A stretch of 64,000 bases of DNA from positions 25,152 through 89,151 of the forward strand of contig CAKZQS010000043.1 in the NCBI GenBank assembly GCA_937141935.1, in the 5' to 3' direction. The translations under genes were made by a program, and so were the position numbers. The notes below the pieces were generated by a model that did no database searches, was not told where the DNA came from, and saw only the letters and a program-made list of their open reading frames with translations. Position 1 is the stretch's first letter. Every line of letters begins with the position of its first letter. Source of the DNA: an uncultured Ectothiorhodospiraceae bacterium (GTDB lineage Bacteria; Pseudomonadota; Gammaproteobacteria; Nevskiales; Oceanococcaceae). Shown here piece after piece: positions 2,559 through 55,164 of the stretch.

Positions 2559-3320
2559 ATGGCTGCCGCGCCCATGCCGCCCCTGCTGCGTCGTTCGCGG
2601 TCGCTGCTGCGCAGCGCGGCCACCGTTGTGCGCCGGCGGCCCAAGGTCTTTTGCATTGGCTACAACAAGAGCGGAACGACCTCGCTGCATGAGCTGTTCC
2701 AGACTCTGGGTTGCCACTCCCTGCACAGCACGATTTGGGGCGACACCGCGCGGCGCCTGATTCACCACCGCTACGAGTGCTTCAGCGATGCTGTGCCGGA
2801 CGATTTTCGCGTGCTGGACCGGCGTTTCCCCAACAGCCGCTTCATCCTGCAGGTCCGCGAGCTGGACCGCTGGGTGGTCAGCCGGCTGGCCCACATACAG
2901 CGCGGCGTGGCCAAGGGCCGGGACTACGACCTGCCGGGCTGGGTGGATGCGGACGAGTCCATCGGCTACTGGCTCGGCCAGCGTCAGGCGCACCACCGCG
3001 CCGTGCTCGACCACTTCGCCACGCAGCCCGAGCGACTGCTGGTCGTGAACGTCTGCTCCGACTCGGACTGGGAGCCGCGGGTTGCCGCCTTTGTCGGCGC
3101 GAGCGCGCCCCCTCCGCGCAGCCGTGTGGCCAACCGCCGGCCGGCAAGCCAGTCGGTCGACGCGCTGCGCGCGCGGGTCGCGCGCGTGCTTGAGCAGCTG
3201 GGCGTACCGCCGGAGGAGCAGGGCAATGACCTGCTGTGCCCGGCGCTGCTCGAAGTCGGCGCCCGCTACCCCGCCCGCAGTGCCGACTTGCCACCAAGCC
3301 TGCGCGGGGCCAGCGTGTGA
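2559..3320 (+). CDS. Sulfotransferase
   Basis: PAPS 5'-phosphosulfate-binding loop GYNKSGTTSL and 3'-phosphate-binding-like motif VRELDRWVVS. Soluble, 253 aa. Confidence 0.7.
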   Translation: MAAAPMPPLLRRSRSLLRSAATVVRRRPKVFCIGYNKSGTTSLHELFQTLGCHSLHSTIWGDTARRLIHHRYECFSDAVPDDFRVLDRRFPNSRFILQVRELDRWVVSRLAHIQRGVAKGRDYDLPGWVDADESIGYWLGQRQAHHRAVLDHFATQPERLLVVNVCSDSDWEPRVAAFVGASAPPPRSRVANRRPASQSVDALRARVARVLEQLGVPPEEQGNDLLCPALLEVGARYPARSADLPPSLRGASV

Positions 3321-4330
3321 GCGCGGCGCTCGAACTGGCCTGCGCCGCCGATGCCGCCTATGTGCCGCATTGCGCCGTGATGCTGCGCTCGGTGATGGAG
3401 CAGCATGCCGGCGAGCCGGTACGCCTGCATTTCCTGCACGCCCCGGACCTGGCGCAAGACAGCCTGCAGGCCCTGGCCGCCGAGGTGCAGGCGGCCGGCG
3501 CGCGTTTCGAGGCCCATGTCATCGCGCCGGAGCGCATCGCGGGCCTGGGCGTGTTGCCGCGCATTCCGGCGGTGATGTGGTACCGGGTTCTGACCCCGGA
3601 ACTGTTGCCCGAGGTGGACCGGCTGCTGTATCTGGACTGCGACACGCTGGTCTGCGAGCGGCTGGACGAGCTCTGGCAGCGGGAGCTGGGCGACGACCTC
3701 GCGGCCGCCTGCGAGAACGCCTTTGATCAGGGGCGCCCGGCGCACCTGTCGCGCCTGGGATTGGCGGACACGCAGCCCTATTTCAACAGCGGCGTGCTGC
3801 TGCTGAACCTGGACCAGTGGCGTGCCGAGGGCACCAGCGCCCGCATCGTCGAGCTGGCACGGGCACGCGCGGCGCAGCTGTGCTGGCCGGATCAGGATGC
3901 GCTGAACCTGGCGCTGGTCGGGCGCTGGCAGGCGCTGCACCCGCGCTGGAACACGCAGAACGCGCTGTATGTATCCGGGGCCGCGCGACGTCAGATCGGC
4001 GCGGCCCGCGCGCGCGCGGCCACCCGCCGGCCGGGCATCGTGCACTTTGAGGGTCCGGGCTTTTGCAAGCCCTGGCACCCGCTGTGCAAACACCCGCGCC
4101 GCGCACACTACCTGCGGCTGCGCGCGCAGACCCGTTGGGGGCCCTTCGACCCGCTGGCCGGAGCCGGCCCGGGGGTGCGCCTGCTGCGCCTGCTGTCCAT
4201 GGGTGGTATCACCCGCGTGCTGCTGTGGCAGGCGTGGCTGCGCGACCCGCGCTGGCGGCGGCGGCTGCGCCGCGTGCTCGCCGGCCTGTGGCGGCGGCGG
4301 CCGCTGCGCAACCGCGGTGGGTCGGCATGA
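3317..4330 (+). CDS. Glycosyltransferase family 8 (RfaJ/LgtC-like retaining hexosyltransferase)
   Basis: GTG at 3317 overlaps the upstream stop (GTGA). Motifs: RLLYLDCDTLV (DxD), YFNSGVLLLNL, PDQDALN, HFEGPGFCKPW. Arg-rich C-terminal tail. Confidence 0.8.
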   Translation: MSAALELACAADAAYVPHCAVMLRSVMEQHAGEPVRLHFLHAPDLAQDSLQALAAEVQAAGARFEAHVIAPERIAGLGVLPRIPAVMWYRVLTPELLPEVDRLLYLDCDTLVCERLDELWQRELGDDLAAACENAFDQGRPAHLSRLGLADTQPYFNSGVLLLNLDQWRAEGTSARIVELARARAAQLCWPDQDALNLALVGRWQALHPRWNTQNALYVSGAARRQIGAARARAATRRPGIVHFEGPGFCKPWHPLCKHPRRAHYLRLRAQTRWGPFDPLAGAGPGVRLLRLLSMGGITRVLLWQAWLRDPRWRRRLRRVLAGLWRRRPLRNRGGSA

Positions 4331-5253
4331 GCGCCGCGCCGCTGCTCTCGGTCATCGTGCCCAGCTACAACCAGGGCCAGTATCTGGGCGCCACGCTGGA
4401 CTCGATCTTCGCGCAGGACTACCGGCCGCTGGAGGTGCTGGTGGTCGACGGGGCCTCCAGCGACAACAGCGTGGACCTGCTTCGCGACTACGCTGGCCGG
4501 CATCCGGAGCTGCGCTGGTGGTCGGAGCCGGACTCCGGCGTGGTCGAGGCGGTGAATAAGGGCCTGGACCGGGCTCGCGGCGAGTTTGCCGCGATCCAGA
4601 GCAGCGACGACATCTACCACCCGGGCGCGCTGCGCGAGGCGGTCGAGCTGTTGCGCGCCGACCCGACGCTGGGCGTCGTGTGCGCGGACGTCGACATCAT
4701 GGACGGCGAAGGGCGCATCCTGCACGCCGCGCCCGTGGGCGCGCCCTACACGCAGGAAAACTTCCTGCTGCGCGCGACCGTCGTGCACCAGAGCAGCACC
4801 GTGTTCCGGCTGGCGGTGGTGCGCGAGGCCGGTGGCTGGCGCGAGCGTTATTTTTGCGCCGACTCCGAGCTGTGGCTGCGGCTGAGCTTTCGCACCCGCT
4901 TCCTGAAGGTCGACCGCCGCTGGTCGGCCTGGCGCAAGCACGAGGCGCAGCGCGACCGCGAGGCCCTGCGCATGTGGCAGGACTGGGGCGCGATGATGCA
5001 CGAGTCGCCGGAGCTGCAGGCGGCGCCGGCGCGGCTGCGCCGGGCGGCGCGGGCCGGTCACCACACGATGGCGGTGGACTACAACCCCAGCGGTCGGGAG
5101 AGTTTTCGCCTGCTGCATCTGTGGTGGGCCCTGCTAATCGCGCCGCGCAGCCTGCGCGCGATTCGCGATTCGGACTTTCTCTTCCCGCGCCGGCTGTGGC
5201 CGATCTGGCGCCGGATCAAGCGGCGTTGGCCCTGGGGGCAGGCGACATGCTGA
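4327..5253 (+). CDS. Glycosyltransferase family 2
   Basis: ATG 4327 (ATGA overlap). Motifs LSVIVPSYNQGQYLGATLDSIFAQDY, VVDGASSD, QSSDD. Confidence 0.8.
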   Translation: MSAAPLLSVIVPSYNQGQYLGATLDSIFAQDYRPLEVLVVDGASSDNSVDLLRDYAGRHPELRWWSEPDSGVVEAVNKGLDRARGEFAAIQSSDDIYHPGALREAVELLRADPTLGVVCADVDIMDGEGRILHAAPVGAPYTQENFLLRATVVHQSSTVFRLAVVREAGGWRERYFCADSELWLRLSFRTRFLKVDRRWSAWRKHEAQRDREALRMWQDWGAMMHESPELQAAPARLRRAARAGHHTMAVDYNPSGRESFRLLHLWWALLIAPRSLRAIRDSDFLFPRRLWPIWRRIKRRWPWGQATC

Positions 5254-6260
5254 AAACCTGGCTGCGCAAGGCCCTGCGGGCCGCGGGCTATGACCTGGTG
5301 CGCCGCCGCCGCGCGGATGCCCGCTACCGGCAGGCCAGCCACAGCGCCGCGATGCCGCTGCCGGAGGGCGCCGAGCAGGACCTGCGCGCCGACCATCCGC
5401 GCCTGCTGGAGCTTAGGCGGATCTATGCGCAGAGCCCGCTGCCGATGGCGGCGCGGGGTATGTGGGGCGAGGATTACCTGGCCCGCGAACTCGACCTGCG
5501 CTACTTCCGCGGCGACAACGCCTATGTCTGGCAGTTTCGCAACGTGGGTGCGCAAGCGCGCCTGAAGTACTACCTGCTGCTGCGCGACATCGCCGCGCGC
5601 GACCCTCACGGCTGGCTGCAGCTGGCCGAGGAAGACGGCGCCTTCGGCTGCTGGAGCTTTGACTACCCGGGCTGGCCGCGGGTCAGCCGCGACCTGCTCG
5701 ATTCGATCAACGAATTGCTGTACCTGGATGCGCGCATGGGCCTGGCCGGCATCGAGGCGCTGCGCATCGTGGACATCGGCGCCGGCTATGGGCGCCTGGC
5801 GCATCGCGCGCACGCGCTGCTGCCGGGGCTGGTCGAATACGTCTGCGTCGACGGCGTGCCGGAATCGACCTTCCTGGCCGAGTATTACCTGCGCCACCGT
5901 GGCTGCGAGCAGGCGCGCGTGCTCGACATTGGCCAGCTGCCGGACTACGCCCCGGCCGCGGCCCCGCAGCTGGCGGTCAACATCCACAGCTTTTCCGAGA
6001 TGCGCCTTGAGAGCATCCGCGGCTGGCTGGCCTGGCTGGCGGCGCTGGGCACACAGCACCTGCTGGTCGTGCCCAACGACGCGCAGCAGATGCTGAGCAT
6101 GGAGCCCGATGGCACGCGCCAGGACTTCGCGCCGCTGTTCGCGGAGGCGGGCTTCACCCTGGCGGATACGCGCCCCGTGCACGAGGACCCCACGCTGCGC
6201 GAGCTGGTCAATGTCAGCGACCACTATTTCTTCTACCGGCGCGGCGCCGCGGCGGCATGA
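5247..6260 (+). CDS. Class I SAM-dependent methyltransferase-like protein (putative sugar O-methyltransferase)
   Basis: In-frame ATG at 5247 overlaps the upstream stop by 7 nt. SAM motif I-like VDIGAGYGRLA. Embedded between GT genes. Confidence 0.55.
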   Translation: MLKTWLRKALRAAGYDLVRRRRADARYRQASHSAAMPLPEGAEQDLRADHPRLLELRRIYAQSPLPMAARGMWGEDYLARELDLRYFRGDNAYVWQFRNVGAQARLKYYLLLRDIAARDPHGWLQLAEEDGAFGCWSFDYPGWPRVSRDLLDSINELLYLDARMGLAGIEALRIVDIGAGYGRLAHRAHALLPGLVEYVCVDGVPESTFLAEYYLRHRGCEQARVLDIGQLPDYAPAAAPQLAVNIHSFSEMRLESIRGWLAWLAALGTQHLLVVPNDAQQMLSMEPDGTRQDFAPLFAEAGFTLADTRPVHEDPTLRELVNVSDHYFFYRRGAAAA

Positions 6261-7216
6261 CGCTGCACCTGGCCTGCATCGCCGAGGGGGATTTCCTGCG
6301 CCACACCGGCGCGATGCTGCATTCGGCACTGCAGCACACGACCCAGCGCCCGCTCACAGTGCACCTGTTGCATGGTCAGCCCTATCCAGCCGCCGACAGC
6401 GCACACATCCGCAGCGTGGTGGAAGAGGCCGGCGCCGAGCTGCACCTGCTGCCGGTCACGGCCGAGCGCGCCGCGACCTTCCGCGACAGCCATTTCCCGC
6501 GGGCCATCTGGTATCGCATCCTGCTGCCGGAGTTGCTGCCCGCCGTCGAGCGGGTGCTGTACCTGGACTCGGACATCATCGTCGGCGACGACCTGGCGCC
6601 GCTGTGGCACACGCCGCTCGAGGGGAACTGGCTGGGCGCCGTGTGCAACCCCTTCTATCCCTTCATGCCCGATTACCCGGTCGAAGCGCTGGGCTTCGGC
6701 TCGGGTCGCGAATACTTCAACTCCGGCGTGCTGCTGCTCGATCTTGCGGCCTTGCGCGCGGCCGGGGCGGTAGCGCCCCTCGTGGACTACGCGCGCCAGC
6801 ACCCGCAGTGCGCCTACCCCGACCAGGACGCGCTGAATGTGGTCTGCCGGGGGCGCTGGAAACCCCTGCACCCGCGCTGGAATGCGCAGTCCACGATCTT
6901 TGAACTGCCGGCACAAACGCTGCCCTTCACGGCGGAGCAGGTTGCGCAGGCCCGCAGCGCGCCAGCCGTCGTGCACTACATCGGGCCCTTCAAGCCCTGG
7001 TCGCATCTGTGCCGGCACCCGCTGCGGGCGCGCTACTTCGCGCACGCGGCGCAAACGCCCTGGGGCGTTCCGGCCATCGCCGATGCCACGCTGCGCAACC
7101 GCATCCTGCGCCTGTTGCCGCTGCGCTGGATCGATCGCTGGATGCGCCTGGAGCGGCTGCTGCGCCGCCCCCCGCGGCTGCGCGCGCGTCTGCGGCGCAT
7201 CGGGGCGCGGCGATGA
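6257..7216 (+). CDS. Glycosyltransferase family 8 (paralog of 3317..4330)
   Basis: Motifs RVLYLDSDIIV (DxD), YFNSGVLLLDL, PDQDALN, HYIGPFKPW. ATGA overlaps at both ends. Arg-rich C-terminal tail. Confidence 0.8.
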   Translation: MTLHLACIAEGDFLRHTGAMLHSALQHTTQRPLTVHLLHGQPYPAADSAHIRSVVEEAGAELHLLPVTAERAATFRDSHFPRAIWYRILLPELLPAVERVLYLDSDIIVGDDLAPLWHTPLEGNWLGAVCNPFYPFMPDYPVEALGFGSGREYFNSGVLLLDLAALRAAGAVAPLVDYARQHPQCAYPDQDALNVVCRGRWKPLHPRWNAQSTIFELPAQTLPFTAEQVAQARSAPAVVHYIGPFKPWSHLCRHPLRARYFAHAAQTPWGVPAIADATLRNRILRLLPLRWIDRWMRLERLLRRPPRLRARLRRIGARR

Positions 7217-8136
7217 GCCCGCCCATGGTCAGCGTGATCCTGCCGGTGCACAACCGTGCCGAGACCATCCTGCGTGCGGTCGACAGCGTGCTTGCGCAGA
7301 GCCATGCGCAGCTGGAACTGCTGGTCGTCGACGATGCCTCGACCGACGGCACGCGCGCCGCGCTGGCCACCGTCGCCGACCCCCGTCTGCGGGTGCTGAC
7401 GCTGGCGCAGAACGGTGGCCCGGCGGTTGCGCGTAACCAGGGCATCAAGCAGGCGCGCGGCGAATGGCTGGCCTTCCAGGACAGCGATGACGAGTGGCTG
7501 CCGCACAAGCTGCAGGCCCAACTCGCTGTGGCGGGCGACGCCAGCCTGGTGCTGTGCCCCTACGCGCTGCCCGGGCCGGCTGGCCCGCGGCGTATCGAGG
7601 CCCGCATGGCGCGCGCCGGCGGCGATATCCGCCACGACCTGTTGGATGGCTGGCCGATCATCACCCCCACCTGGCTGCTGCGGCGGGACCTGCCCGAGGG
7701 CTTGCCGCAATTCGATGAGTCGCTGCGCTGCCTGGAGGACTGGGACCTGATCCTGCGCCTGGGCCGCCAGCGGCGGATCGTCGCCGGCCCGGCGGAGGTC
7801 TGCCTGCACAAGCACGCCAGCGCCGACTCGGTCTGCGGCGACCCCGCGCGGATGCGCCACGCCCTGGCCGAGATTCTTCGTCGGCATGGCGCGTTGTGGG
7901 CCGACAGCCCCACCCGTCGGGCGCGGCGCCTGGGCCACCTGGTCGTGCTGGACCTGGCCTGCGGGGATCGGCGCGCCGCGCGGCGGCATGCGCTACGGGC
8001 CCTGCGCGCCGCGCCCTGGCACCCGGCGCCCTGGGCCCTGCTCGCCGCCACCTGGGGGCGGGCCCGCTGGCTGCGCGCCTGCCAGCAGCGCTGGCCCCTG
8101 TTTACCGGCATGGCGCTGCCCGCGCCGGCCCCCTAG
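7213..8136 (+). CDS. Glycosyltransferase family 2
   Basis: ATG 7213 (ATGA overlap). Motifs VSVILPVHNRAETILRAVDSVLAQSH, LLVVDDASTDGT, FQDSDDEW. Confidence 0.8.
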   Translation: MSPPMVSVILPVHNRAETILRAVDSVLAQSHAQLELLVVDDASTDGTRAALATVADPRLRVLTLAQNGGPAVARNQGIKQARGEWLAFQDSDDEWLPHKLQAQLAVAGDASLVLCPYALPGPAGPRRIEARMARAGGDIRHDLLDGWPIITPTWLLRRDLPEGLPQFDESLRCLEDWDLILRLGRQRRIVAGPAEVCLHKHASADSVCGDPARMRHALAEILRRHGALWADSPTRRARRLGHLVVLDLACGDRRAARRHALRALRAAPWHPAPWALLAATWGRARWLRACQQRWPLFTGMALPAPAP

Positions 8137-8152
8137 TGCAAGGAAGACTGCC

Positions 8153-9088
8153 ATGACGACGACGCGCCCCCTGGTGAGCGTGATCATCCCCACCCACAAT
8201 CGTGAGGACCTGCTGGGTCGGGCGATCCGCAGCGTCCTGGCGCAGTCCTACCGGGAGCTGGAGCTGATCGTCGTCGACGACGCCTCCACCGACGGTACCC
8301 GCGAGGTTGTGGCCGCCTTCGACGACCCGCGGCTGCATTACCTGCGCCGCGAGCAGGGCGGCAGTGCCGCGGCCGCACGCAATGCGGGCCTTGCCATCGC
8401 GAAGGGCGAGCTGATCGCCTTCCAGGACGACGACGACATCTGGTTGCTGGAAAAACTGGAGAAGCAGGTGCCGCATCTGCTCGCGCAGGGCGAGGAGGTC
8501 GGGCTGAGCGTGTGCAGCATGATCTGGCTGACCGGCAAGCGCGAGGCGCAGTTCGTCGGGGGCGAGGCCGCCTTCCGCACGCTGGACTACCGCAAGGGCA
8601 AGACCGGCGACGAAGGCCTGATCGCCACGCCGGGTTGGCTGGTGCGGCGCGCGGCGCTGGAGGCCGCCGGGAATTTTGACCCGGAGATGCGCTCTTGGGA
8701 CGATTGGGAGCTGGGCTTGCGCCTGTGGCAGGTGTGCAAGTTCACCCACCTCGACGAGCCTCTGGTGGTACAGGACCGCACGCGCGGCAGCCTGATGATC
8801 CGCAACGTGCAGGCCTTTGCCGGCGACATGCAGACCATCATGCGCAAGCACGGCCAGATGTGGGCCGGGCAGCCCGTGGTGCTGTCGCGGCATTACTACT
8901 TCATCGGCAACTGCTACTGCCGCTTTGGTGATCGGGCCGATGGCATCCCCTGGCTGCGCAAGGCCGTGCAGGCCCGGCCGGGCAATTGGCAGGCGCGTCT
9001 GGGCCTGTGGGCCGCGCGGCTGAATTGCTACCCGCTGGCCGTGTCGCTGCTGACCGCTCTGCGTCGCCTGGCCCGGAAGCTGCGCTGA
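8153..9088 (+). CDS. Glycosyltransferase family 2
   Basis: ATG 8153. Motifs VSVIIPTHNREDLLGRAIRSVLAQSY, IVVDDASTDGT, FQDDDDIW. Confidence 0.8.
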   Translation: MTTTRPLVSVIIPTHNREDLLGRAIRSVLAQSYRELELIVVDDASTDGTREVVAAFDDPRLHYLRREQGGSAAAARNAGLAIAKGELIAFQDDDDIWLLEKLEKQVPHLLAQGEEVGLSVCSMIWLTGKREAQFVGGEAAFRTLDYRKGKTGDEGLIATPGWLVRRAALEAAGNFDPEMRSWDDWELGLRLWQVCKFTHLDEPLVVQDRTRGSLMIRNVQAFAGDMQTIMRKHGQMWAGQPVVLSRHYYFIGNCYCRFGDRADGIPWLRKAVQARPGNWQARLGLWAARLNCYPLAVSLLTALRRLARKLR

Positions 9089-9090
9089 AC

Positions 9091-9894
9091 ATGCGGCGCG
9101 GCACGCTGGTGGCGCTGGCGGGCCGGGTTCCCGGCCTGGTCGCGCTGCTGCGGCGCCTGCGCGACCGCAGGGCGGAGGCCGCGCTGGCCGGCATCGATTA
9201 CCGCCCGGGCCTGTGCATCAACAGCATGCCCAAAGCCGGTACGCACTTGCTGGCGGGCGCGCTCGCGGCGCTCGAGGTGCCGCACTACCGGCGCCACCTC
9301 AACGGTGTGGATGCGGCGACGCTGGCGCGGCTCGATGGCGCCGTGTTCTTTACCCATCTGGCCTACAGCCCCGAGGCGGCGCAGCGGTTGCAGCAGGCCG
9401 GTTACCACCAGTGGCTGCTGCTCCGGGCGCCCACCGCGGTCGCGTTGTCGACGCTGGTCTATGTGCTGACCCGGCGGGATCACCCACAGCACGCGGCCTA
9501 TGCGCAGGCCTGGCAACAGGGCGGCGCGCAGGCTCTGGTGGCGCTGCGCGTGCACGGTGACGCCGCGCGGGGCCTGGGCTCGATCGCGGCGCTGTACCGG
9601 CGCTATTTCGACTGGGCCGGCCAGCCGGGGGTTGCGCCCCTGTACTACGAGGACCTGACTGGCCCGCAGGGGCTGAGCATGCTGCTGTCGCGGCTCGCCG
9701 AGGAAGGCGCGCCGCTGCGCAGGCCGGCCGTCAGCGACCTCGGCGCATTGGCTCCGCCACAGGCCAGCGCGACGGTCCTGCCGGACTGGGTGGACCGCCG
9801 GGCGCTGCAGGACTTGCTGACCGGCGAACATGCGGCGATTCTGCAACCGCTGGAACGGGCCTATCAGCGCCTGCGGGAGTCGGGGAGCGCATGA
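9091..9894 (+). CDS. Sulfotransferase-like protein
   Basis: ATG 9091. 5'-PSB-like loop SMPKAGTHLL and 3'-PB-like LLLRAPTAVALS. Confidence 0.55.
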   Translation: MRRGTLVALAGRVPGLVALLRRLRDRRAEAALAGIDYRPGLCINSMPKAGTHLLAGALAALEVPHYRRHLNGVDAATLARLDGAVFFTHLAYSPEAAQRLQQAGYHQWLLLRAPTAVALSTLVYVLTRRDHPQHAAYAQAWQQGGAQALVALRVHGDAARGLGSIAALYRRYFDWAGQPGVAPLYYEDLTGPQGLSMLLSRLAEEGAPLRRPAVSDLGALAPPQASATVLPDWVDRRALQDLLTGEHAAILQPLERAYQRLRESGSA

Positions 9895-10799: not shown

Positions 10800-10830
10800 G
10801 CCACCGCCGCGCCGCGACTGAGTTCCCCGG

Positions 10831-21200: not shown

Positions 21201-21282
21201 CCGCGCGGGGTCGCCGCCATTAGGAAGCGCGTGCGCCGGCAACGCCGGTGGCTGGCCACGATGAGAATCGCGCGCACGCCGC

Positions 21283-24572: not shown

Positions 24573-24605
24573 GCTCAGCCCCCGCCGCGACCCGAGGATC
24601 GGGCC

Positions 24606-28127: not shown

Positions 28128-28140
28128 GCGGTTCGCGAGC

Positions 28141-39420: not shown

Positions 39421-39974
39421 AGGTCGAAGCGACCAAACTGGAGGGCGTGCTGAAACTGCAGCCCACCGTGCATGGCGATGCGCGGGGCTGGTTCATGGAA
39501 GCCTTCAACGCCCGCCGCTTCGCCGAGGCCACCGGGCACGGTGCCCCGCTGGTGCAGGACAACCAGTCGCTGTCCGCGCGGGGCGTGCTGCGCGGCCTGC
39601 ATTATCAGGTCGGGCCCAATGCCCAGGCCAAGCTGGTCCGGGTTCTGGCCGGAGAAATCTTTGACGTGGCCGTCGACCTGCGTCGCGGTTCGCCGACCTT
39701 CGGCCGCTGGACCGGCGCCTGGCTGTCGGCGCAGAACCGCACCCAGCTCTGGGTGCCGGTGGGCTTCGCGCACGGCTTCATGGTGACCTCGGAGCAGGCC
39801 GAAGTCCTGTACAAGGTGTCCGCCCCCTACGACCGGGCCGCCGAGCGCGCCGTGCGCTGGGACGACCCGGGCATCGGCATTGAATGGCCCCTCAATGGCG
39901 CGCCCACGCTGTCGGACAAAGACGCGGTGGCGCCGCGGCTGGAACAGGCCGAGGTCTTCGAGGCCGCGGCATGA
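39417..39974 (+). CDS. rmlC: dTDP-4-dehydrorhamnose 3,5-epimerase
   Basis: 185 aa cupin. Motifs [28 protein letters not shown] overlaps at both ends. Confidence 0.95.
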
Positions 39975-42023: not shown

Positions 42024-42067
42024 GCTCAGGCCTTGCTCAGGCCTTGCTCAGGCCTCGCTCAGGGCCG
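42024..42067. repeat. Four tandem copies of an 11-bp unit (GCTCAGGCCTT) at a convergent gene junction
   Basis: gctcaggcctt gctcaggcctt gctcaggcctc gctcagggccg. The third unit contains the stop codon (42048..42050) of the 1934-aa gene. Confidence 0.85.
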
Positions 42068-45000: not shown

Positions 45001-47852
45001 CTGATCCGGGCAAACTTGCGGCGCACCGCGGCCTCGTTGCGGCCCAGGTCTTCGGTCAGCGTGATGTTTTCCAGCGCCGGCGCGATGCGGTAATCGGCGA
45101 GCAGCAGCGGCAGGTAGCGCGGCTCGTAGAGGCGCGTGTAGCGCAGGATCAGGTCCCAGTCGACCAGCCGGCGCAGCCCGGTGTCGAAGCCGCCCAGCTG
45201 GGCATGCACGCGACGCCGGTGGCTGAAGATGTTCAGGTCGATGTAGTTCTGCGCGCGCAGGTCCTGCCAGTCGAAGTCGCGGCCGCGCTCGAAGCGCCGC
45301 CCGCGCGCCTGGTCATCGACCCGCAGCGCCGCATAACAGGTCTGCAGCAGCGGGTCTTCGATGTAGGCGGCGGCGACATGCAGCAGGTAGTCGGGGTGCC
45401 AGCGGTTGTCGGAGTCCAGGTAGGCGATGCAATCGCCTGTGGCGGCCTCCAGCCCGCTGTTGCGGGCGGCGCTGACGCCGGCATGTGGCAGCGCCAGCAG
45501 GCGCAGCTGCCCGCTCTGGACTAGCTCGGGGTAGCGCGCGCGGACCCGCGCCAGCGTGTCGTCTTCGCTGCCGTCATCGCAAAGCAGCAGCTCCCAGTGC
45601 GGGTAGCTCTGCGCCTGGACCGAGGCGATGGCCTCCAGCACCGGTTCCGCGCGGTTCCAGGTGGGCATCACCACCGAGAAGCGCGGCGCGGAGGCCCCGC
45701 TCACCGCGGCCAGCGCGGCCTGGCGCTCCGCCGCGCTGGGCACTTGTGGAGGTGCCGAATCAACCCGTGGCCGGCGCGGCGGCCTGCGGCCGGCTGCGCT
45801 GGCCAATGCCGGCGGGCCCGCCTCCGCGCCCAATGGCGGGCGGCGATCCGCCGGCCGGCTAAGCCAATGCCGCAGCGCGGCGGTGGGCTCCGTGGGCAGC
45901 TCCGGCTGCCGCTGCGCGTAGGCGCGGGCGTCGAAGTGCGGGTGCGGCGCCAGCCCGGCCGCGGCGCCCTGCGTCAGCCAATGGGCGAAGGCGTCGGCCT
46001 GGGGGTCCAGCCCCGGGCAGCGCTCCCGATACCAGCCCGCATCGAAGCCCGGGTTGGGCGCGCGACCCTCCGCCGCGCCGTGGCAGAGGTAATGCCACAG
46101 CGGGTCCAGGCCGCCGGCCTCGACGTCCGGGTAGCGCTGCAGGTACCAGGCCGCATCGAACCACGGGCTCGGCGCCTTCGCGGCCAGCGGTGCGACGCGC
46201 CGGTAGTCCGCCAGGGCCTGCGCGGGAGCCAGCTCGTCGCTGCCGGCGAGGTAGAACTCGGGCTCGAAATAGGGATTCGGTCTCCGACCCTCCGCCGCGC
46301 CGTAGGCGCAGTAGTGGGCCCAGGCGCCGAGCCCTGCCGCGGCGACATCGGGGTGCGCGTGGAGGTACCAGGCGGGCTGAAAATAGGGGCTGGGCTGCCG
46401 GCCCTCGGCCTCGCCATGCTCCAGGTAGTGCCACAGCGGCTGCACCCCGGCCTGGGCGACGTCGGGGTAGGCCCGCAGGTACCAGTCCAGCGCGAAGCCC
46501 GGATGCGGCGCCTGGCCTTGGCGCCAGCCCTGCGCCAGCCAGTGCAGGGCCAACGCCAGCGGGCGACCCCGCAGCTTGTATTCGGTCGCGTACCAAGAGG
46601 CATCAAACAGGCGCTCGCGCAGCAGCCTGCGCGCCTGGCGCAGATGCGCCGCATGGCGGCCCAGCCGCACCGGGCGTGCGCCGTTGACATTCGGGATCGT
46701 AGCGGCGCGCAGCTGCCGCGCCGCCTGCGCCCGCGCGAGCCGCAGCTGCGTCTCGCGACGCTGCAGCTGCGCCGCCACCTGCGCGTGCTCCTGGCGGCTC
46801 TGCGCATGCGCGGCCTGCTCCGCGTCGAGCTGCGTCTGCAACTGGCGCTCGCGCGCCTGCAGCGCCTGGACCTGGGCGCGGTCCCGCGCCAGATCCTGTT
46901 CCAGGGCCTGCTGCCGCGCGTGCGCCTGCTGCGCCTCGCTGCGCGCCTGCGTGCGCTCCGCGTCCGCCTGCGCCCGGCGCTCGTCGAGCAGCGGTACCCA
47001 CAGCTCGGCGGCTCGGGCCACCTCGCCGGCGATGCGCTCCAGGGCGGCCTGGGCGTCGGCCGCCGCGGCCGGATCCTCGGCGGCGCACAGCCGCGCCAGC
47101 GCCGTGTCCGTGTCCTGCACCCAGCCGCGGGTCAGCGCCTGCCGGGTGAGGCTCTCCGCTTCCGTCTGGTGATGGCGCTCGTCGGCGCGCAGGAAGGCCT
47201 CGATGTCCGCCGCAGCCACTTCCGCCGTGCGCGGCCACTGCAGCCCTGTTCGGCTGCCGATGCGCGCGACGGCCGACTGCCAGTCGTCCAGCAGGGCGGT
47301 ATAGGGGAGCAAGACGCGCGGCAGCTCGCGGCTGTCGTGTTCGGCGTCCAGCACATAGCGCAACCACAGCAGCAGCGACTGCGCCGCGCTGAAGCCGTCG
47401 CGCGCCTGCAGCGAGGCGGCGACCTCCAGCGGGTTGCGGGTGATCAGCACGCCGCGCAGGTCGATGTCCAGCGTGGCGAAAATCGGCTGCCAGAAGGGCA
47501 GCAGGCGGCTGAGCCGGGGCTCCTTGAGCACGCCCAGCGGCGCCTCGCCGAAATCCGCCTGCAGCTGCTCGCGCGCCCGGGCGCCGAGCTCGCCCTCGGC
47601 CAGCTCCCGGAGGGCCGTCGGATCGAGCGGGCGCCAGTCATCCCAGCGGCTGCCCATCGCCTGCAGAACGGCATCGTTGAGCCGGTACAGGCTCTGCGGC
47701 TCCCAGAAGCCCAGCGCGTTGTTGCCTTCGACCGGGGGCATCAATTGCGCGGGGAGCTGCGCGCCGAGCAGGTTCAGCACCCGGGTCAGGGCCGAGGTGC
47801 CGCTGCGGTGCATGCCGAGGACCAGCAGAAGAGTCTGTCGCGTCTGCGCCAT
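42048..47852 (-). CDS. Giant multidomain glycan-assembly enzyme: sulfotransferase, coiled coil, 7 tandem repeats, GT2, GT4, GT2, Zn-ribbons, SAM methyltransferase
   Basis: 1934 aa. aa 1-230: sulfotransferase (GMHRSGTSAL, TRNPLEVAAS). aa ~285-385: Q/A/R-rich heptad-like coiled coil. aa 417-672: ~37-aa repeats (WYLxxYPDVxxAGxxPLxHYLxHGAAEGRxPNPxF). aa ~724-950: GT2 (FSVVMPTWNRAEPVLEAIASVQAQSY, LLCDDGSEDD, YLDSDN). aa ~958-1305: GT4 (GDRDGLPTVLLEAMAAGVPVL). aa ~1314-1545: GT2-like (IFMVTFHRE, TIVDNASD). CxxC...CxxC at aa 1567-1590 and 1712-1741. C-terminal MTase motif LVICNHVLEHVPDD. Confidence 0.85.
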   Translation of the reverse strand: MAQTRQTLLLVLGMHRSGTSALTRVLNLLGAQLPAQLMPPVEGNNALGFWEPQSLYRLNDAVLQAMGSRWDDWRPLDPTALRELAEGELGARAREQLQADFGEAPLGVLKEPRLSRLLPFWQPIFATLDIDLRGVLITRNPLEVAASLQARDGFSAAQSLLLWLRYVLDAEHDSRELPRVLLPYTALLDDWQSAVARIGSRTGLQWPRTAEVAAADIEAFLRADERHHQTEAESLTRQALTRGWVQDTDTALARLCAAEDPAAAADAQAALERIAGEVARAAELWVPLLDERRAQADAERTQARSEAQQAHARQQALEQDLARDRAQVQALQARERQLQTQLDAEQAAHAQSRQEHAQVAAQLQRRETQLRLARAQAARQLRAATIPNVNGARPVRLGRHAAHLRQARRLLRERLFDASWYATEYKLRGRPLALALHWLAQGWRQGQAPHPGFALDWYLRAYPDVAQAGVQPLWHYLEHGEAEGRQPSPYFQPAWYLHAHPDVAAAGLGAWAHYCAYGAAEGRRPNPYFEPEFYLAGSDELAPAQALADYRRVAPLAAKAPSPWFDAAWYLQRYPDVEAGGLDPLWHYLCHGAAEGRAPNPGFDAGWYRERCPGLDPQADAFAHWLTQGAAAGLAPHPHFDARAYAQRQPELPTEPTAALRHWLSRPADRRPPLGAEAGPPALASAAGRRPPRRPRVDSAPPQVPSAAERQAALAAVSGASAPRFSVVMPTWNRAEPVLEAIASVQAQSYPHWELLLCDDGSEDDTLARVRARYPELVQSGQLRLLALPHAGVSAARNSGLEAATGDCIAYLDSDNRWHPDYLLHVAAAYIEDPLLQTCYAALRVDDQARGRRFERGRDFDWQDLRAQNYIDLNIFSHRRRVHAQLGGFDTGLRRLVDWDLILRYTRLYEPRYLPLLLADYRIAPALENITLTEDLGRNEAAVRRKFARISVEDPAALRLAYVIWDWPALSQTFVMEELRELLRRGIDVRVYYSQPPDRAAQDLPAVVATRVADAEDLAARLRADERTWVHGHFAYPGGTLLLWPAAEACGLPFSLMPHAVDIFHHANRQRNRIAEIAASPYCAGILVHGPHHRDFLQSQGVPAERCIYTPQAVSLAPTPPTAARKDGDGPRRILCATRLVEKKGVQLLLEALAQLPAEAAELQIAGYGPLEAKLRARSHELGVAERVHFSGGYEGAAELQALLAQADVFCLPCIEAENGDRDGLPTVLLEAMAAGVPVLTTAVSAIPDYLSDGIQAFVSAAEPAALAAGLRDVLQLPAAQRQAISAQGQAWCQREFGSARPVDTLLDLALAPPLDIFMVTFHREGYGNWEATERAIDSVRAHTQTPFRLTIVDNASDADFLERLEAHIAADDRIRLLALPENRYCGPASNLALERARSEFIIYVCSNEGLILHAGWERKLLHHMRREPDIALGGQLVASPAWPDGRAYSEQSWFADFRAQDFARAHPEREFRHVQGGLFVLRRSVYEEHGGFSPQRPQALMDVEYSYYLESQSLRLGELPGLAALSNKTRPGLDSFVDEGTLAAHPVFEETLPLLAHCQGDNAARCNLCGWTGEIARAADRISFDCPDCGSRPFDRAVYRQLATSALHHRGLRLDPRGLGARARAVLGERMFALVADGAAADVRAEAQLRGAPSRVLGLPPHLLRPAAAPEPVAGAGSAPRGAEAGENAASNPGTPQPDAAADTATAASACNICGHREFGPGPGGRRAVGGEAWPRCTRCQSLERHRAFRQAFLDIGEAELAGRNPALQFSADPAVPREWFAGLEVSQYGGDNSLDLMQIDRADGAYQLVICNHVLEHVPDDRSALQELGRITAAEGLVFLSFPDPLRRETTVDWGYADESRHGHYRHYGRDVYALLREALPEMHILNAVGTDPATGCAEMYFLLTRQAQRARHWLQALPSAQRIHEPALSEA
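45837..46604 (-). repeat. Seven tandem ~37-aa coding repeats inside the giant enzyme
   Basis: Aligned by eye: DWYLRAYPDVAQAGVQPLWHYLEHGEAEGRQPSPYF / AWYLHAHPDVAAAGLGAWAHYCAYGAAEGRRPNPYF / AWYLQRYPDVEAGGLDPLWHYLCHGAAEGRAPNPGF, plus four more degenerate copies. Confidence 0.75.
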
Positions 47853-47853: not shown

Positions 47854-48768
47854 TCAGCCTCCCGCGGGCAACGCCATCAGGCGTCGCGCGGCGGCAGGCA
47901 GGCGGCCCAGGTAAACGGGGTCGCGCCACATCACCCGGTGCTCCTCACCGCGCAGTTCCCGGTACTCGTCGCGAAAGTCCTGCATCGGCCGCTCCTCGGC
48001 CGGGACGTTGGTCGAGACCCCGCCATGGAACTGGTGGAAGGTGGCCTCGCCGAGCAGCATCACGGGTGTGAGTTCGGGGTGCATGACCAGGCGGTTGTGG
48101 ATGTCGAGGTTGACGAAGCCGCCGCCGATGGTGCGAAAGCCGGGGTCGAAGCCGCCCAGCGCGTCGAGCAGGCCGCGCGGGGCGGCGAAGCAGTTGCTTT
48201 CGGCCAGGCTGCCCAGGAAACCATCCCGCGAGGAGCCGGCCAGGCTGCTGATGGCAAAGAGTTTGTAACCGTCCTCGCGCCAGCCGCTGCGCTTGAGCAG
48301 CCCGTCCTCGACCTCCTGGCAGTAGCCCTCGAGCATCGACAGGTTCTGGCGCTTGGGGCCGAGGTGCATGCCCAGCGTCATCACGTAGGCGGGCGCGAAG
48401 GCGGACAGCGCCTTCAGCAGGTAATGCAGCATCCCCGGCGAGGGAATGCGCGCGCCGTCGATCACGCAGGCCACGTGCTCGCCACGCGCGGCCGCGATGC
48501 CGGCATTCATGGCCGCGACGGGCGTCGGGTCCGCAGAGGGCACGAACTGGTAGCGAAACCCGGGCTGCAGCGCCTCGATGGCGGCCCCATCGAGCGGCTC
48601 GCGCGAGTTGCTGTCCATCGCCAGAACTTCATAGTCCTGCGCGCTGACGCCTTGCTGGAAGGCGGTGCTGAAGGCCCACAGCGTGCGCCGCGCTTCGCGG
48701 CGCATGTTGTGAAAGACCACGACGACCGACAGCTTCGGTCGCGGCGCGCGTTTAAGACCCCAGGGCAT
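47854..48768 (-). CDS. GT-A fold glycosyltransferase-like protein (GT2-like)
   Basis: ATG 48768 (MPWGLKRAPRPKLSVVVVFHNMRREARRTL). The stop lies 1 nt before the giant gene start. Confidence 0.6.
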   Translation of the reverse strand: MPWGLKRAPRPKLSVVVVFHNMRREARRTLWAFSTAFQQGVSAQDYEVLAMDSNSREPLDGAAIEALQPGFRYQFVPSADPTPVAAMNAGIAAARGEHVACVIDGARIPSPGMLHYLLKALSAFAPAYVMTLGMHLGPKRQNLSMLEGYCQEVEDGLLKRSGWREDGYKLFAISSLAGSSRDGFLGSLAESNCFAAPRGLLDALGGFDPGFRTIGGGFVNLDIHNRLVMHPELTPVMLLGEATFHQFHGGVSTNVPAEERPMQDFRDEYRELRGEEHRVMWRDPVYLGRLPAAARRLMALPAGG

Positions 48769-49492
48769 GCCCGTGCTCCTCCAGTGCCGCGAAAACGCGC
48801 ATGCTGGCTGCGTCGACGGCGATCGGTTCGGCATCGTCGTGGTTGCGCAGCTCCGGTTGAAAGAAGTCCGCGGCCGCGGGTTCCAGGCCCAGGTGTTGCA
48901 GCAAGCCGACCAGATCCGCGCGGTAGGCCTCGGGTGCCTGATCAAAGCGGATCAGCGGCACCGCATATCGCCGCGCGAGCGTGAGCAGGCGCTGGTTGTA
49001 CTCGCGCCACAGCGCCAGTCCGCGCGCGTGACTGAAGCGGTTGCGGTGCGCGAGCGAGCGGGCCACCGCCGCCGGGTGCCGGTAGGTGCCGGCGAATTTC
49101 CAGGCGGGAACGGCCTCCTGCCAGAAGGGCAGGGTGAACACGGTGCGTGGGTCCTTGAAGCCCCAGGGGCCCTGCGCGGGCACCAATTCCTCCAGCACGG
49201 CCGCGCGCTCGGCGCGCAGCGCCGGGCCCCAGTGCAGCGCCAGCGCGGGGTTATCCCAGCGGCCGCCATTGGCCGCCAGCACGGCGTCATTGAGGGCCAT
49301 GACGCGCGGGTGCTCGCGGTTGCCGCGGCGGTTGAAGGGGTTGGCGGTATGCACATCACCCAGGTGCAGGCCCGCCTGTTGCAGGCTGCCGGCAAGACAA
49401 CTGGTGCCGCTGCGATGCATGCCCAAAACGCAGATGCAGCTCACGTTATTAATAAGGCGTCCCTGGACCCGAATTAGCTGGCGCAAATGCAA
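48752..49492 (-). CDS. Sulfotransferase (paralog of the N-terminal domain of the giant enzyme)
   Basis: Motifs GMHRSGTSCL, ALNDAVLAANGGRWDNP (compare LNDAVLQAMGSRWDDW in the giant protein), YRHPAAVARS. The start is uncertain: TTG 49492 or GTG 49444. Confidence 0.75.
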   Translation of the reverse strand: MHLRQLIRVQGRLINNVSCICVLGMHRSGTSCLAGSLQQAGLHLGDVHTANPFNRRGNREHPRVMALNDAVLAANGGRWDNPALALHWGPALRAERAAVLEELVPAQGPWGFKDPRTVFTLPFWQEAVPAWKFAGTYRHPAAVARSLAHRNRFSHARGLALWREYNQRLLTLARRYAVPLIRFDQAPEAYRADLVGLLQHLGLEPAAADFFQPELRNHDDAEPIAVDAASMRVFAALEEHGHALGS

Positions 49493-53416: not shown

Positions 53417-54154
53417 GTGCTGAGCTTCGTCTGCATCGGCGCCCAGAAGGCCGGCACCTCCTGGGTGCACGCCCAGCTGGCGCGCTCCCCGGAGATCGGC
53501 TTTCCCCGCGGCAAGGAAGTGCACTATTGGGATTGGGTTCAGCGTGGCAAGCGCCCGCTGAACCTGATCCGTTATGTGGAGCCTTTCGCGCGGGATGCGG
53601 ACAGTCCTCGCCTGCTGGGCGACATGACGCCGGCCTATGCCACCGTCCGCCCCGAGTACGTGCACCTGCACGCGCAAATGTATCCCGAGGCGCCGCTGTT
53701 CATGCTGCTCCGGGACCCTGTCGAGCGGGCCTGGTCGGCGGCGCGCATGGATTGGGCCGCCGAACACCCGCAGGCGTCGATGTCTCCCGATCCGGCCTGG
53801 TTGGCGGCCTACCTGCGAGACCCGGAGGTTTTGGCCAAGGGCGACTACGCCCGCAGCCTGCGCACCTGGGGCGCCTACTTTCCCGCCGGCCGGCTGCGCG
53901 CCTTCATGTATGCGGACATCGCCCGCCGCCCGCGGCCGCTGCTGCGGGATATCTGCGCGCATATCGGTGCCGATGATGCCTTTGTCGATGACATCACCGA
54001 TGCGGCGCTGATGGAACGCGTGCGCCCCGGTCCCCGTTCCGCGCCCTGTCCGCCAGCAATGGCAGCCGAACTGCGCGCCTGGTACCTGCCGCGCATGCGT
54101 GCGCTGGAAGACCTGCTCGGCCAGGCCCTGCCGGACTGGCAGGCTGCCACGTGA
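53417..54154 (+). CDS. Sulfotransferase
   Basis: GTG start. 5'-PSB GAQKAGTSWV and 3'-PB LRDPVERAWS. Confidence 0.8.
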   Translation: MLSFVCIGAQKAGTSWVHAQLARSPEIGFPRGKEVHYWDWVQRGKRPLNLIRYVEPFARDADSPRLLGDMTPAYATVRPEYVHLHAQMYPEAPLFMLLRDPVERAWSAARMDWAAEHPQASMSPDPAWLAAYLRDPEVLAKGDYARSLRTWGAYFPAGRLRAFMYADIARRPRPLLRDICAHIGADDAFVDDITDAALMERVRPGPRSAPCPPAMAAELRAWYLPRMRALEDLLGQALPDWQAAT

Positions 54155-55164
54155 GCCGCCCCCGGACATCGGCGCCGCCGCCGGCGCCATGGCTGTTTTG
54201 CCACCTGCCCAAGACCGCGGGGACGTCCTTTCGCGCCGCGTTGGGCGAGGTGCTGCCGGCGCAGGAACTGCTGCTCGATTATGGACGCGACAAGGCCTTC
54301 ACCAGCGCGGACCTGGAGGCGCGCCTGAAGCTGCCTGAAGAAAAGCGGGACTGGCGGGTGTTGGCGGGCCATGTGTCACTGCGGCGCTATGCGAGCCTGT
54401 TCGACCCCCGCCAGGTCATCGCCTTCCTGCGCGACCCGCTGCAGCAGTTGTATTCCCACCACCAGCACCACCAGCGGCGCTTCGATGACCCGCGCAGCCT
54501 CGCCGAGTTTGCACTCTCGCCTGCGGGCGCCGGCCTGCAGCGGCGCATGCTGGGCGAAGTGCCCGTGCAGTTGCTGGGCTTTGTCGGCCTGACCGAGCAA
54601 TACGCGGACAGCCTGAAGCTGCTGGCGCGGTCCCATGGCCTGCTGCTGCCGGCGCGCCACGCCAACAGCAACCCGAACAAGTCGGATCCCCGCTACCCGC
54701 TGCGCACCAGCGACCTGCCGGGGGAATGTCGCAAGGCCATTCACGCCGACCAGCGTTATTACATCCAGGCGACGCGGGTGCTGCGCGAGCGGCTGCGCTT
54801 CGGGAGCGAACAGCCCTGGGTCCATGGGGCCGTCACGGGTCTCAGCGCCGAGCGCGTCGACGGACTGGCCTTGGCCCCCATCGGCGAGACCCGCCCGCTG
54901 GCGCTGGAGGTGCGCGTCGACGGCGAGCACGTGGGGCTGGCCTGCACCGGCTATGCGCGCGACCTGCCTCTGGGCATGCGGCTCGCCGACGACAGCCGGC
55001 CCGGTTTCGTTTTTCACTTCCCGCGCCCACTTCCGCTGGGGGCCCGCGTTGATCTGTATGCCTGGGAAAGCGGGCAATGGCTGGATGCGCAGGAGCTGCG
55101 TGCCAGGGGCCCGGTCACGCCGCCCATGCGGCGGCGGCCGCGCGCGATGCGGGCTTCGGCATGA
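54151..55164 (+). CDS. Sulfotransferase (family-2-like) with C-terminal extension
   Basis: GTG 54151 (GTGA overlap). Motifs HLPKTAGTSF and LRDPLQQLYS. Confidence 0.7.
   Translation: MSRPRTSAPPPAPWLFCHLPKTAGTSFRAALGEVLPAQELLLDYGRDKAFTSADLEARLKLPEEKRDWRVLAGHVSLRRYASLFDPRQVIAFLRDPLQQLYSHHQHHQRRFDDPRSLAEFALSPAGAGLQRRMLGEVPVQLLGFVGLTEQYADSLKLLARSHGLLLPARHANSNPNKSDPRYPLRTSDLPGECRKAIHADQRYYIQATRVLRERLRFGSEQPWVHGAVTGLSAERVDGLALAPIGETRPLALEVRVDGEHVGLACTGYARDLPLGMRLADDSRPGFVFHFPRPLPLGARVDLYAWESGQWLDAQELRARGPVTPPMRRRPRAMRASA

Follow-up and report, generated by a model that had tools for sequence, protein, structure and literature searches.

Sulfotransferase genes in a large glycan island

We analysed 64,000 nucleotides of DNA (the window) from an uncultured Ectothiorhodospiraceae bacterium (GenBank assembly GCA_937141935.1, contig CAKZQS010000043.1, positions 25,152 to 89,151), the site of a glycan island in which a preliminary description had marked seven sulfotransferase (ST) domains interleaved with about 19 glycosyltransferase (GT) domains, a methyltransferase and an MBOAT acyltransferase. 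GC content is about 70% throughout the window; genes were called by third-position GC and then checked against public calls on contigs 100% identical to the window, and all ten window proteins that were looked up had exact matches in public collections. Pfam searches found about 20 GT domains, the MBOAT protein and methyltransferase domains, and the 14 motif peptides quoted earlier for the seven STs were all present in the open reading frames (ORFs) named, in good agreement with the earlier inventory. A 106.8-kb ENA contig (ERZ928368 k127_150347), from metagenome project PRJEB22134, described as aquaculture systems in Shandong, agreed with the window at 100% identity in both stretches that were compared (1-11,475 and 52,647-64,000).

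Identical contig sequence extends the island on both sides (L094 upstream, L091 downstream). The upstream view, limited to 9.7 kb beyond the window start, holds in order an Acyl_transf_3 protein, a TylF methyltransferase, an RGP-family protein, ST8 (GSYRCGTTSL / LRAPAERLLS; Pfam 44.9 bits), ST9 (GAMKSGTSTL / LREPVARTYS; 73.8 bits), a second TylF methyltransferase, a Polysacc_synt flippase and two further Acyl_transf_3 proteins. The seven STs first described are real, and the two upstream genes (L094:3452-5415) raise the count to nine, of five sequence types. Downstream of the window, yjbH/yjbF-like genes are followed by a GT2-GtrA-DUF2298 set and then by rpoZ, spoT, ridA and recG; from this order we place the end of the island about 5.5 kb past the window. 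The glycan island is at least 79 kb long, with its upstream end open, and carries nine ST domains (Table 1).

Table 1. Genes and domains of the island, with P-loop ORFs from comparison loci. Positions are those of the window unless a locus is given; peptides are the 5' and 3' motifs.
Feature	Position	Strand	Evidence or remarks
ST8 (323 aa) and ST9 (331 aa), Sulfotransfer_1/3	-6282 to -4319		flanked by two TylF methyltransferases, flippase, three Acyl_transf_3
WecA-type initiating phosphoglycosyltransferase (PF00953), line A	1472..2551	+	Pfam 107 bits; exact protein in public collection
ST1, Sulfotransfer_4-type	2559..3320	+	GYNKSGTTSL / VRELDRWVVS
GT8, GT2, 337-aa weak methyltransferase-like ORF, GT8, GT2, GT2, line A	3317..9088	+	Pfam; gene calls from identical contig
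ST2, divergent near-orphan, Sulfotransfer_1 type	9091..9894	+	SMPKAGTHLL / LRAPTAVALS
GT2, then MBOAT O-acyltransferase, line A	9891..12255	+	Pfam
GT4, line B	20010..21242	-	Pfam 126 bits
ST3, Sulfotransfer_3/1 type	21283..22143	-	GAPKCGTTSL / LRDPAEMAAS; between Wzy-like gene and GT4 gene
Two Wzy_C, three GT4, Wzc-like co-polymerase (Wzz + GNVR + AAA_31), Wza-like exporter, line B	22136..31544		Pfam
rmlB, rmlA, rmlC, rmlD (dTDP-L-rhamnose synthesis)	37451..40840	+	Pfam
1,934-aa protein	42048-47852	-	order: ST, coiled-coil-like segment, repeats, GT2, GT4, GT2, Cys-rich motifs, methyltransferase
GT2 (aa 723-960), GT4 (972-1290), GT2 (1318-1490), Cys-rich Zn-ribbon-like motifs, C-terminal methyltransferase (~1797-1868) of 1,934-aa protein	42048..45686	-	Pfam, sequence
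5-6 tandem ~37-aa repeats of 1,934-aa protein	45903..46610	-	WYLxxYPDVAxAGxxPLxHYLxHGxxEGRxPxPxF; read from translation; between coiled coil and first GT2
Coiled-coil-like segment (aa ~270-390), candidate molecular ruler	46683..47045	-	composition
ST4-N, N-terminal ST domain (aa 1 to ~240), candidate chain terminator	47133..47852	-	GMHRSGTSAL / TRNPLEVAAS
GT2_304 (304 aa)	47854..48768	-	beside ST5; also in Thiothrix
ST5, GMHRSGTS-type	48752..49492	-	GMHRSGTSCL / YRHPAAVARS
ST6, Sulfotransfer_3/1 type	53417..54154	+	GAQKAGTSWV / LRDPVERAWS
ST7, Sulfotransfer_2-like, ST domain aa 1-220	54151..55164	+	HLPKTAGTSF / LRDPLQQLYS
GT2_567 (567 aa), conserved ST7 partner	55161..56864	+	
Wzm (ABC-2 permease), Wzt (224-aa ATPase), 370-aa protein in KpsE position, KpsD-like Poly_export	56898..61229	+	Pfam, gene calls
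Halomonas/Shewanella P-loop ORFs	L038:1660-7333, L042:3435-12326, L028:5122-9120		no Pfam sulfotransferase match; one fused to WcbI domain

Cofactor-binding motifs, family membership and fold

All seven window domains, together with ST8 and ST9, carry at the domain N-terminus the 5'-phosphosulfate-binding (5'-PSB) loop for 3'-phosphoadenosine 5'-phosphosulfate (PAPS), a beta strand followed by x-K/R-[STA]-G-[TS]-[STH], and the loop is invariant in the family alignments of ST2, ST4-N and ST7. The 3'-phosphate-binding (3'-PB) motif, a beta strand with R-x7-S, was found in seven of seven, its Arg and Ser being invariant in the alignments of ST2 (R112/S120) and ST4-N (R139/S147). The narrower form R-x-P-x5-S, earlier ascribed to all seven, describes six of them; ST1 reads R-E-L, with Leu where the other six have Pro. 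A strict two-motif pattern had five matches in the window, where composition-matched simulations gave 0.93 on average; ST1 and ST2 lay just below its spacing limit. No hidden further ST emerged among the window's unannotated ORFs (Pfam, E ≤ 1) or by motif scan, and NCBIfam gave just faint, uninformative NoeE matches for ST3 and ST6.

Four window domains pass their Pfam cut-offs: ST3 (Sulfotransfer_3, 56.9 bits; Sulfotransfer_1, 35.9 bits), ST6 (Sulfotransfer_3, 47.5 bits), ST5 (Sulfotransfer_3, 31.1 bits; cut-off 27) and ST1 (Sulfotransfer_4, PF17784, 40.4 bits; gathering cut-off 22.8), the best stretch of the last spanning just profile positions 1-30. The best PDB match of ST1, 9kf1, a 'sulfotransferase family protein', aligned near full length (residues 33-197; ILQVRELDRWVVS vs LLTVRDSERWYDS). 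The ST1 gene starts 8 bp past the WecA stop, and its end overlaps the start of the next GT8 gene. In the public gene set ST5 has 222 aa and starts with the ATG at 49420, a Met that lies within GMHRSGTS, so that the beta-1 strand would be lost; the truncated product has no precomputed Pfam match. As the family profile alignment extends to 49465, this call is probably too short, and translation more likely starts at the TTG at 49492 or at another upstream codon. Pfam membership was borne out for these four of the seven, and ST8 and ST9 upstream also pass the Sulfotransfer_1/3 cut-off; ST4-N scored below its cut-off, ST2 had no match and ST7 had none even at E ≤ 10. Single-sequence PDB searches with ST2, ST4-N and ST7 were not significant, and family profiles were needed.

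A word-indexed search with ST2 returned one sequence, 98% identical, and an exhaustive HMMER search returned 278 distant relatives. In the resulting alignment 47 of 51 sequences match PF00685, and the family profile reached cytosolic STs at E = 7e-20; ST2 itself retains P47, K48, G50, T51, H52, H89, R112 and S120. In the ST7 family (21 sequences) H18, P20-S26, G73, R94 and P96 are invariant, with H74 and S102 kept in at least 90%, and the family profile aligned across both PAPS loops with two heparan sulfate enzymes, the 6-O-sulfotransferase (E = 1.9e-16) and the 2-O-sulfotransferase (E = 1e-5). As a Thiothrix homolog of ST7 also reaches the cut-off for Sulfotransfer_2 (PF03567; 22.7 bits against 22), ST7 is a relative of that family, though not a member by the Pfam criterion.

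Predicted structures agreed with these assignments. The AlphaFold2 (AF2) model of ST4-N, built on a 45-sequence alignment, had a predicted local distance difference test score (pLDDT) of 94.9, and its top 22 Foldseek matches in PDB were all PAPS sulfotransferases, matched with a probability of 1.00; among them are TPST2, the ST domains of CurM and OLS, Stf9 and cytosolic SULTs. For the AF2 model of ST7 (pLDDT 87.7) the sole fold match at E ≤ 0.001 was 3rnl, a bacterial sulfotransferase. The seven window domains are ST-fold proteins, by Pfam (ST1, ST3, ST5 and ST6), by family profile (ST2 and ST7) and by fold (ST4-N); folds were modelled for ST4-N and ST7, and the other assignments rest on profile matches.

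Behind its ST domain, the ST7 model forms a C-terminal beta-sandwich at high pLDDT (aa 225-315; window 54823-55095, plus strand) with Ig/FN3-like fold matches. From the model, this domain could be a carbohydrate-binding module; the terminator protein of the Klebsiella pneumoniae O7 system also has an Ig-like putative carbohydrate-binding module (PMC11231755).

Three assembly lines

The STs are split over three assembly lines, two of Wzx/Wzy type and one of ATP-binding cassette (ABC) transporter type. Line A, on the plus strand from the upstream stretch to about 13.2 kb, consists of a flippase, a GT4, the WecA-type initiator, ST1, GT8, GT2, a methyltransferase-like ORF, GT8, GT2, GT2, ST2, GT2 and MBOAT. 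Line B (20-33 kb) runs GT4, ST3, Wzy_C, three GT4s, a second Wzy_C, the Wzc-like and Wza-like proteins and a BBP2_2 porin. Line C (36.5-62 kb) begins with a GT2, rmlBADC and a Gly_transf_sug GT, continues with the 1,934-aa protein, GT2_304, ST5, a 650-aa unknown protein, a peptidyl-prolyl isomerase and a SnoaL-like ORF, and ends with ST6, ST7, GT2_567, Wzm, Wzt, a 370-aa unknown protein, the KpsD-like exporter and GT2_275. The ABC2_membrane and ABC_tran domains at 56898-58408 make up the Wzm/Wzt pair of line C, and the 370-aa protein in the KpsE position had no family match in Pfam. Genes overlap by 4 bp in ST6/ST7/GT2_567 and in ST2/GT2, and by 17 bp in ST5/GT2_304.

Wzy_C and Poly_export proteins each occur twice in the island, which further holds one Wzc, one Wzx and a full Wzm/Wzt set. 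Because of this redundancy, and because the STs are spread over all three lines, two or three distinct sulfated glycans appear likelier from the gene content than one polymer. The proposal that the island makes one heavily sulfated polysaccharide keeps its first half, since sulfated surface glycans are the natural inference from STs that lie inside GT operons, often with overlapping start and stop codons; a single polymer is a poor fit to three assembly systems.

Several neighbouring genes adjoin these lines. The RGP-family gene (PF03214; L094:2288-3451) lies beside ST8; this family is best known for plant UDP-arabinopyranose mutases, and the gene's position hints that the line A glycan may contain a furanose sugar such as arabinofuranose. 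The stretch between lines A and B encodes a protein of 1,635 aa (14784-19691, minus strand) in which two Calx-beta domains occur along with a PPC and an S8 subtilase domain; two ORFs (12230-13237 and 13288-14592) adjoin it. Directly after the Wza/Wzc genes (31597-36393, minus strand) are genes for the BBP2_2 beta-barrel porin, for a protein with a FecR domain and for a penicillin-amidase-family protein of 840 aa. The yjbH/yjbF-like set (62241-64000, plus strand, and L091:10631-16822, with GT2-GtrA-DUF2298), between line C and the housekeeping genes, is a fourth polysaccharide-related system.

The host lineage recurs in many metagenome assemblies, in dozens of contigs of up to 173 kb that include a 98-99% identical variant. 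Among about 15 billion proteins, the rpoZ product (L091:16937-17197) stands as a singleton at the 90% identity level. Among the 80 comparison loci introduced below, the nearest homologs of RmlA and of the KpsD-like protein are betaproteobacterial, which is weak taxonomic evidence.

A sulfotransferase fused to a probable coiled coil and glycosyltransferases

The ST-coiled-coil-GT architecture of the 1,934-aa protein of line C, which the preliminary description did not contain, is in our view the most interesting feature of the island. ST4-N is 37% identical to ST5 (E = 2e-16). Its family comprises at least 2,459 matches. Of the 120 that were listed, roughly half carry PF13469, the names of several read 'sulfotransferase family protein', and many are rhizobial. 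Behind the ST domain (aa ~270-390) lie about 100 residues without Pro or Gly, of which 86-90% are A/E/L/Q/R/K/M/D, with a weak match to a coiled-coil family (ATG14, E = 0.39). The tandem repeats that follow matched no Pfam family, and tblastn with aa 261-720, which covers coiled coil and repeats, gave matches in 15 of 80 comparison loci.

Among the top 120 matches of the ST4-N family, 45 of the 53 members of at least 400 aa have a coiled-coil-like tail behind the ST domain. In Mesorhizobium cantuariense, an ST-coiled-coil protein of the family is divergently transcribed from wzm/wzt. In Rhizobium hainanense (L095:9315-11287), a family protein with a coiled-coil-like tail is encoded directly after a stand-alone adenosine 5'-phosphosulfate (APS) kinase gene; a Caps_synth GT lies next to the gene for the family protein, and the location is the edge of a P22-like prophage.

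Conservation of line C

Line C proteins were compared by tblastn with 80 loci from species-representative genomes, each with an ST7 homolog; the contig scan used the pattern H[VI]PKTAGTS, outside which the window's own HLPKTAGTS falls. In 52 of the 80 loci the ST7 homolog has a GT2_567 homolog as its neighbour, and four Thiothrix loci have GT2_304, ST5, ST6, GT2_567 and ST7 together. The Thiothrix STs, confirmed or near-confirmed by Pfam (23.1, 65.5 and 22.7 bits), place three ST types within about 5 kb, a result obtained without profile iteration. Line C recurs among these loci as a module of its own, with lines A and B missing; this conserved synteny is a direct observation, as are gene order and the assignments of fold and family.

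Two loci carry relatives of the 1,934-aa protein itself. In Nitrosospira sp. 56-18, Wzm, Wzt, the 370-aa unknown protein and KpsD stand in the same order as in the window, followed by a 1,347-aa ORF and then ST7; in Ca. Ferrigenium straubiae, the 370-aa protein, KpsD, RmlC and RmlA are followed by an ORF of about 1,530 aa and then ST7. Both giant ORFs begin with a GMHRSGTS- or GMHRGGTS-type ST, with scores of 232 and 206 bits against the ST4-N profile and 32-34% identity to ST4-N. The ST is followed by a strongly periodic coiled coil, clearer than in the window protein, that spans about 110 residues in the Nitrosospira ORF and about 290 in that of Ferrigenium, and both ORFs end in two GT2 modules, with no methyltransferase domain detected in either.

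A count of five STs per 21 kb in Halomonas/Shewanella was withdrawn: the iterated ST3/ST6-type profile had drifted, Pfam found no ST in most of the ORFs, and one has a WcbI domain. These ORFs, beside ST7 homologs, carry a strand followed by G-x-x-K-[TS]-G-[ST]-[ST] and, some 110 residues further on, a second strand with R-x7-S behind it, and may be sulfotransferase families missed by current models.

Proposed model and alternatives

We propose, with a probability of roughly two in three, that the nine PAPS-type ST domains of the island serve three assembly lines that make several sulfated glycans, with ST4-N as a chain terminator. In line A, the WecA-like enzyme would start an undecaprenyl-linked repeat unit that about eight GTs extend; ST8, ST9, ST1 and perhaps ST2 would sulfate it in the cytoplasm, with further decoration by the TylF-type methyltransferases, the Acyl_transf_3 proteins and MBOAT. 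Line B, with its four GT4s and ST3, is a second system of the Wzy/Wzc/Wza kind. In the ABC-transporter-dependent line C, ST5-7 would sulfate internal positions of the glycan, and the N-terminal ST of the 1,934-aa protein would terminate the chain, kept at a distance from the polymerising GT modules by the coiled coil. Because PAPS is cytoplasmic and the STs have no obvious export signal, sulfation would take place on lipid-linked intermediates before export. For catalytic activity, substrates, the number of polymers and the capping role, we infer from sequence, predicted fold and gene context.

The 1,934-aa protein appears to have the terminator-ruler-polymerase layout of WbdD/WbbB-type systems, and by this analogy sulfate may be a previously uncharacterised terminating cap in ABC-transporter glycan synthesis, added by coiled-coil-ruler STs of the GMHRSGTS type, either stand-alone and WbdD-like, as in rhizobia and numerous metagenomic members, or GT-fused and WbbB-like, as in the window, Nitrosospira and Ferrigenium. 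The line C glycan would then be length-controlled, capped, internally sulfated and probably rhamnose-containing. We advance this broader proposal tentatively, giving it about one chance in three.

Several observations weigh against the model. For line C, ST4-N alone scored 24.8 bits against a Pfam cut-off of 27, and its family profile reached no PDB sulfotransferase by sequence, which is why the domain was judged by fold comparison; the coiled coil of the 1,934-aa protein was called from composition; and the Wzt protein (224 aa) has in Pfam an ABC_tran domain without a carbohydrate-binding module. Lines A and B are divided by position only, and both may serve one polymer. The remark that the window lacks PAPS-synthesis genes held up, and no ATP sulfurylase or APS kinase gene (cysD, cysN, cysC) was found from -9.7 kb to +74 kb, that is, in the window, about 9.7 kb upstream and 10 kb downstream. 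ST2 lacks D113 and R115, residues kept in more than 80% of its relatives, and a four-residue deletion takes out the third motif of its family, TFRxGxIGxW, kept in 82-96% of relatives; we accept its fold and, given these losses, regard its catalytic activity as uncertain and possibly impaired.

The C-terminal methyltransferase of the 1,934-aa protein could also be the real terminator. The ST would then be an internal modifier, and chains would end by methylation or, as in group-2-capsule-like export, without a terminator. Methyl caps are established and sulfate caps are not (PMC11231755), the bare Wzt and the KpsD-like exporter suggest capsule-type export, and internal sulfation probably happens anyway, judging by the three other STs of line C. 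We nevertheless consider this alternative less likely than the model, as the coiled coil separates the ST, not the methyltransferase, from the GT modules, the Nitrosospira and Ferrigenium orthologs keep ST, coiled coil and GTs with no methyltransferase domain seen, and stand-alone family members consist of an ST with a coiled-coil-like tail, an arrangement like that of WbdD.

That several domains are not active glycan STs, being pseudoenzymes or acting on lipids, peptides or small molecules, is improbable. The near-orphan ST2 has lost part of its third family motif, ST4-N finds its best fold matches in tyrosylprotein and polyketide STs, and the Sulfotransfer_4 family of ST1 has, to our knowledge, not been characterised for glycans; against this, the 5'-PSB Lys/Arg and the 3'-PB Arg and Ser are kept in seven of seven, all seven lie inside GT operons, and five of the seven belong to modules conserved with GTs across distant taxa. 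Least probable of all is that every ST acts on a single, very heavily sulfated capsule or extracellular polysaccharide (EPS) made by the whole island, a reading that draws on the contiguity of the genes, bounded downstream by housekeeping genes, and on the synechan cluster, where ST and GT numbers roughly match the composition of one repeat unit (PMC8205485), and that is contradicted by the redundant export machinery and by the occurrence of line C elsewhere, independent of lines A and B.

If the ST in terminator position does cap chains, it would bring new chemistry to the polymerase-terminator model and provide enzymes for sulfated polysaccharides of defined length. More broadly, GT2-ST5-ST6/GT2-ST7 in cultured Thiothrix, the ST-coiled-coil-GT proteins of Nitrosospira and Ferrigenium and the ST-coiled-coil proteins encoded near wzm/wzt or an APS kinase gene in cultured rhizobia suggest that annotation greatly understates how widespread glycan sulfation is in Proteobacteria; Pfam overlooks ST2 and ST7 altogether. 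Sulfated glycosaminoglycan-like polymers have been reported from environmental biofilms (PMC7356697), and the STs of the island are candidate enzymes for such polymers.

Comparison with known systems

Rhizobial surface sulfation is known from the Nod factor enzyme NodH and also from LpsS and KpsS. Sulfation of Sinorhizobium meliloti lipopolysaccharide (LPS) is cited in a passage of PMC12595478 (its ref. 16). The window resembles these systems in its predicted PAPS-dependent sulfation of surface glycans, and many of the ST4-N family members are rhizobial, one of them beside wzm/wzt and one beside an APS kinase gene; the rhizobial systems differ in being single sulfotransferases. As a distant homolog, ST7 is like the animal heparan sulfate 6-O- and 2-O-sulfotransferases in both PAPS loops of its family profile and unlike them in its added beta-sandwich domain and in being bacterial and cytoplasmic. 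For sulfate that ends glycan elongation, the HNK-1 sulfotransferase (HNK-1ST) is a eukaryotic precedent. Its capping of matriglycan is ascribed to Sheikh et al. 2020 in a passage of PMC12514197.

With group 2 (Kps-type) capsules the window shares KpsM/T-like and KpsD-like proteins; no Capsule_synth (KpsS/KpsC) domain was found by Pfam among the window ORFs, and the group 2 set is incomplete. For prototypical capped-glycan systems, Mann et al. are said to have described in 2019 the carbohydrate-binding module of Wzt as a hallmark. A Wzt module that recognises the terminating groups of O-polysaccharides has been noted (PMC12595478). In coiled-coil ABC-transporter systems the terminator sits at the ruler's distal end, as WbdD, WbbB and the O7 ORF6 of K. 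pneumoniae illustrate (PMC11231755), and polymerase-terminator examples are WbdD/WbdA (Escherichia coli O9a / K. pneumoniae O3) and WbbB (K. pneumoniae O12) (PMC11231755, PMC3482155). O7 ORF6 runs from a methyltransferase-kinase through a coiled coil to a pair of GT2 modules, and its cluster also contains rml genes and wzm/wzt (PMC11231755). The known caps are methyl, phospho-methyl and 3-deoxy-D-manno-oct-2-ulosonic acid (Kdo). A literature search for sulfotransferases tied to coiled-coil terminators returned nothing relevant, in a body of work that did not include a 2019 terminator-chemistry census which possibly predicts them.

Line C is like the WbdD, WbbB and O7 ORF6 systems in its Wzm/Wzt and rml genes, and its large protein sets an N-terminal modifying domain, a probable coiled coil and C-terminal GTs in the order of WbbB and O7 ORF6. 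It differs from WbdD, WbbB and O7 ORF6 in that the distal domain is an ST and not a methyltransferase/kinase or Kdo transferase, in its Wzt without a carbohydrate-binding module, and in the repeat region and C-terminal methyltransferase that the 1,934-aa protein adds. The island as a whole belongs to a known kind, the sulfated-polysaccharide biosynthesis cluster; what appears new from its sequence is an ST in the terminator position of a coiled-coil polymerase protein.

Genetically defined sulfated bacterial polysaccharides are rare, and the best-studied cluster, that of synechan, has two STs. The synechan xss cluster of Synechocystis sp. PCC 6803, which makes a Wzx/Wzy-dependent sulfated EPS, has these two STs and eight GTs, lies on a megaplasmid and is accompanied by the XssS/R/Q regulators; its authors knew of no other bacterial EPS cluster with two STs, and described sulfated polysaccharides as unreported outside cyanobacteria (PMC8205485). 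Regulators of that sort were not seen in the window: no histidine kinase, response regulator or STAND protein was among the Pfam matches of its large ORFs. Like the synechan cluster, the island sets STs of differing subfamilies among GTs together with Wzx, Wzy, a co-polymerase and an outer-membrane exporter; unlike it, the island has nine STs, about 20 GT domains, three assembly lines and a proteobacterial host. Pontiella has three putative glycosaminoglycan STs, one of them within a GT cluster (PMC7356697). The earlier view that the ST density has no described match does not hold per kilobase, because Thiothrix has three STs within about 5 kb; it does hold for the total, as nine STs in one island are far above the two of synechan and the three of Pontiella.

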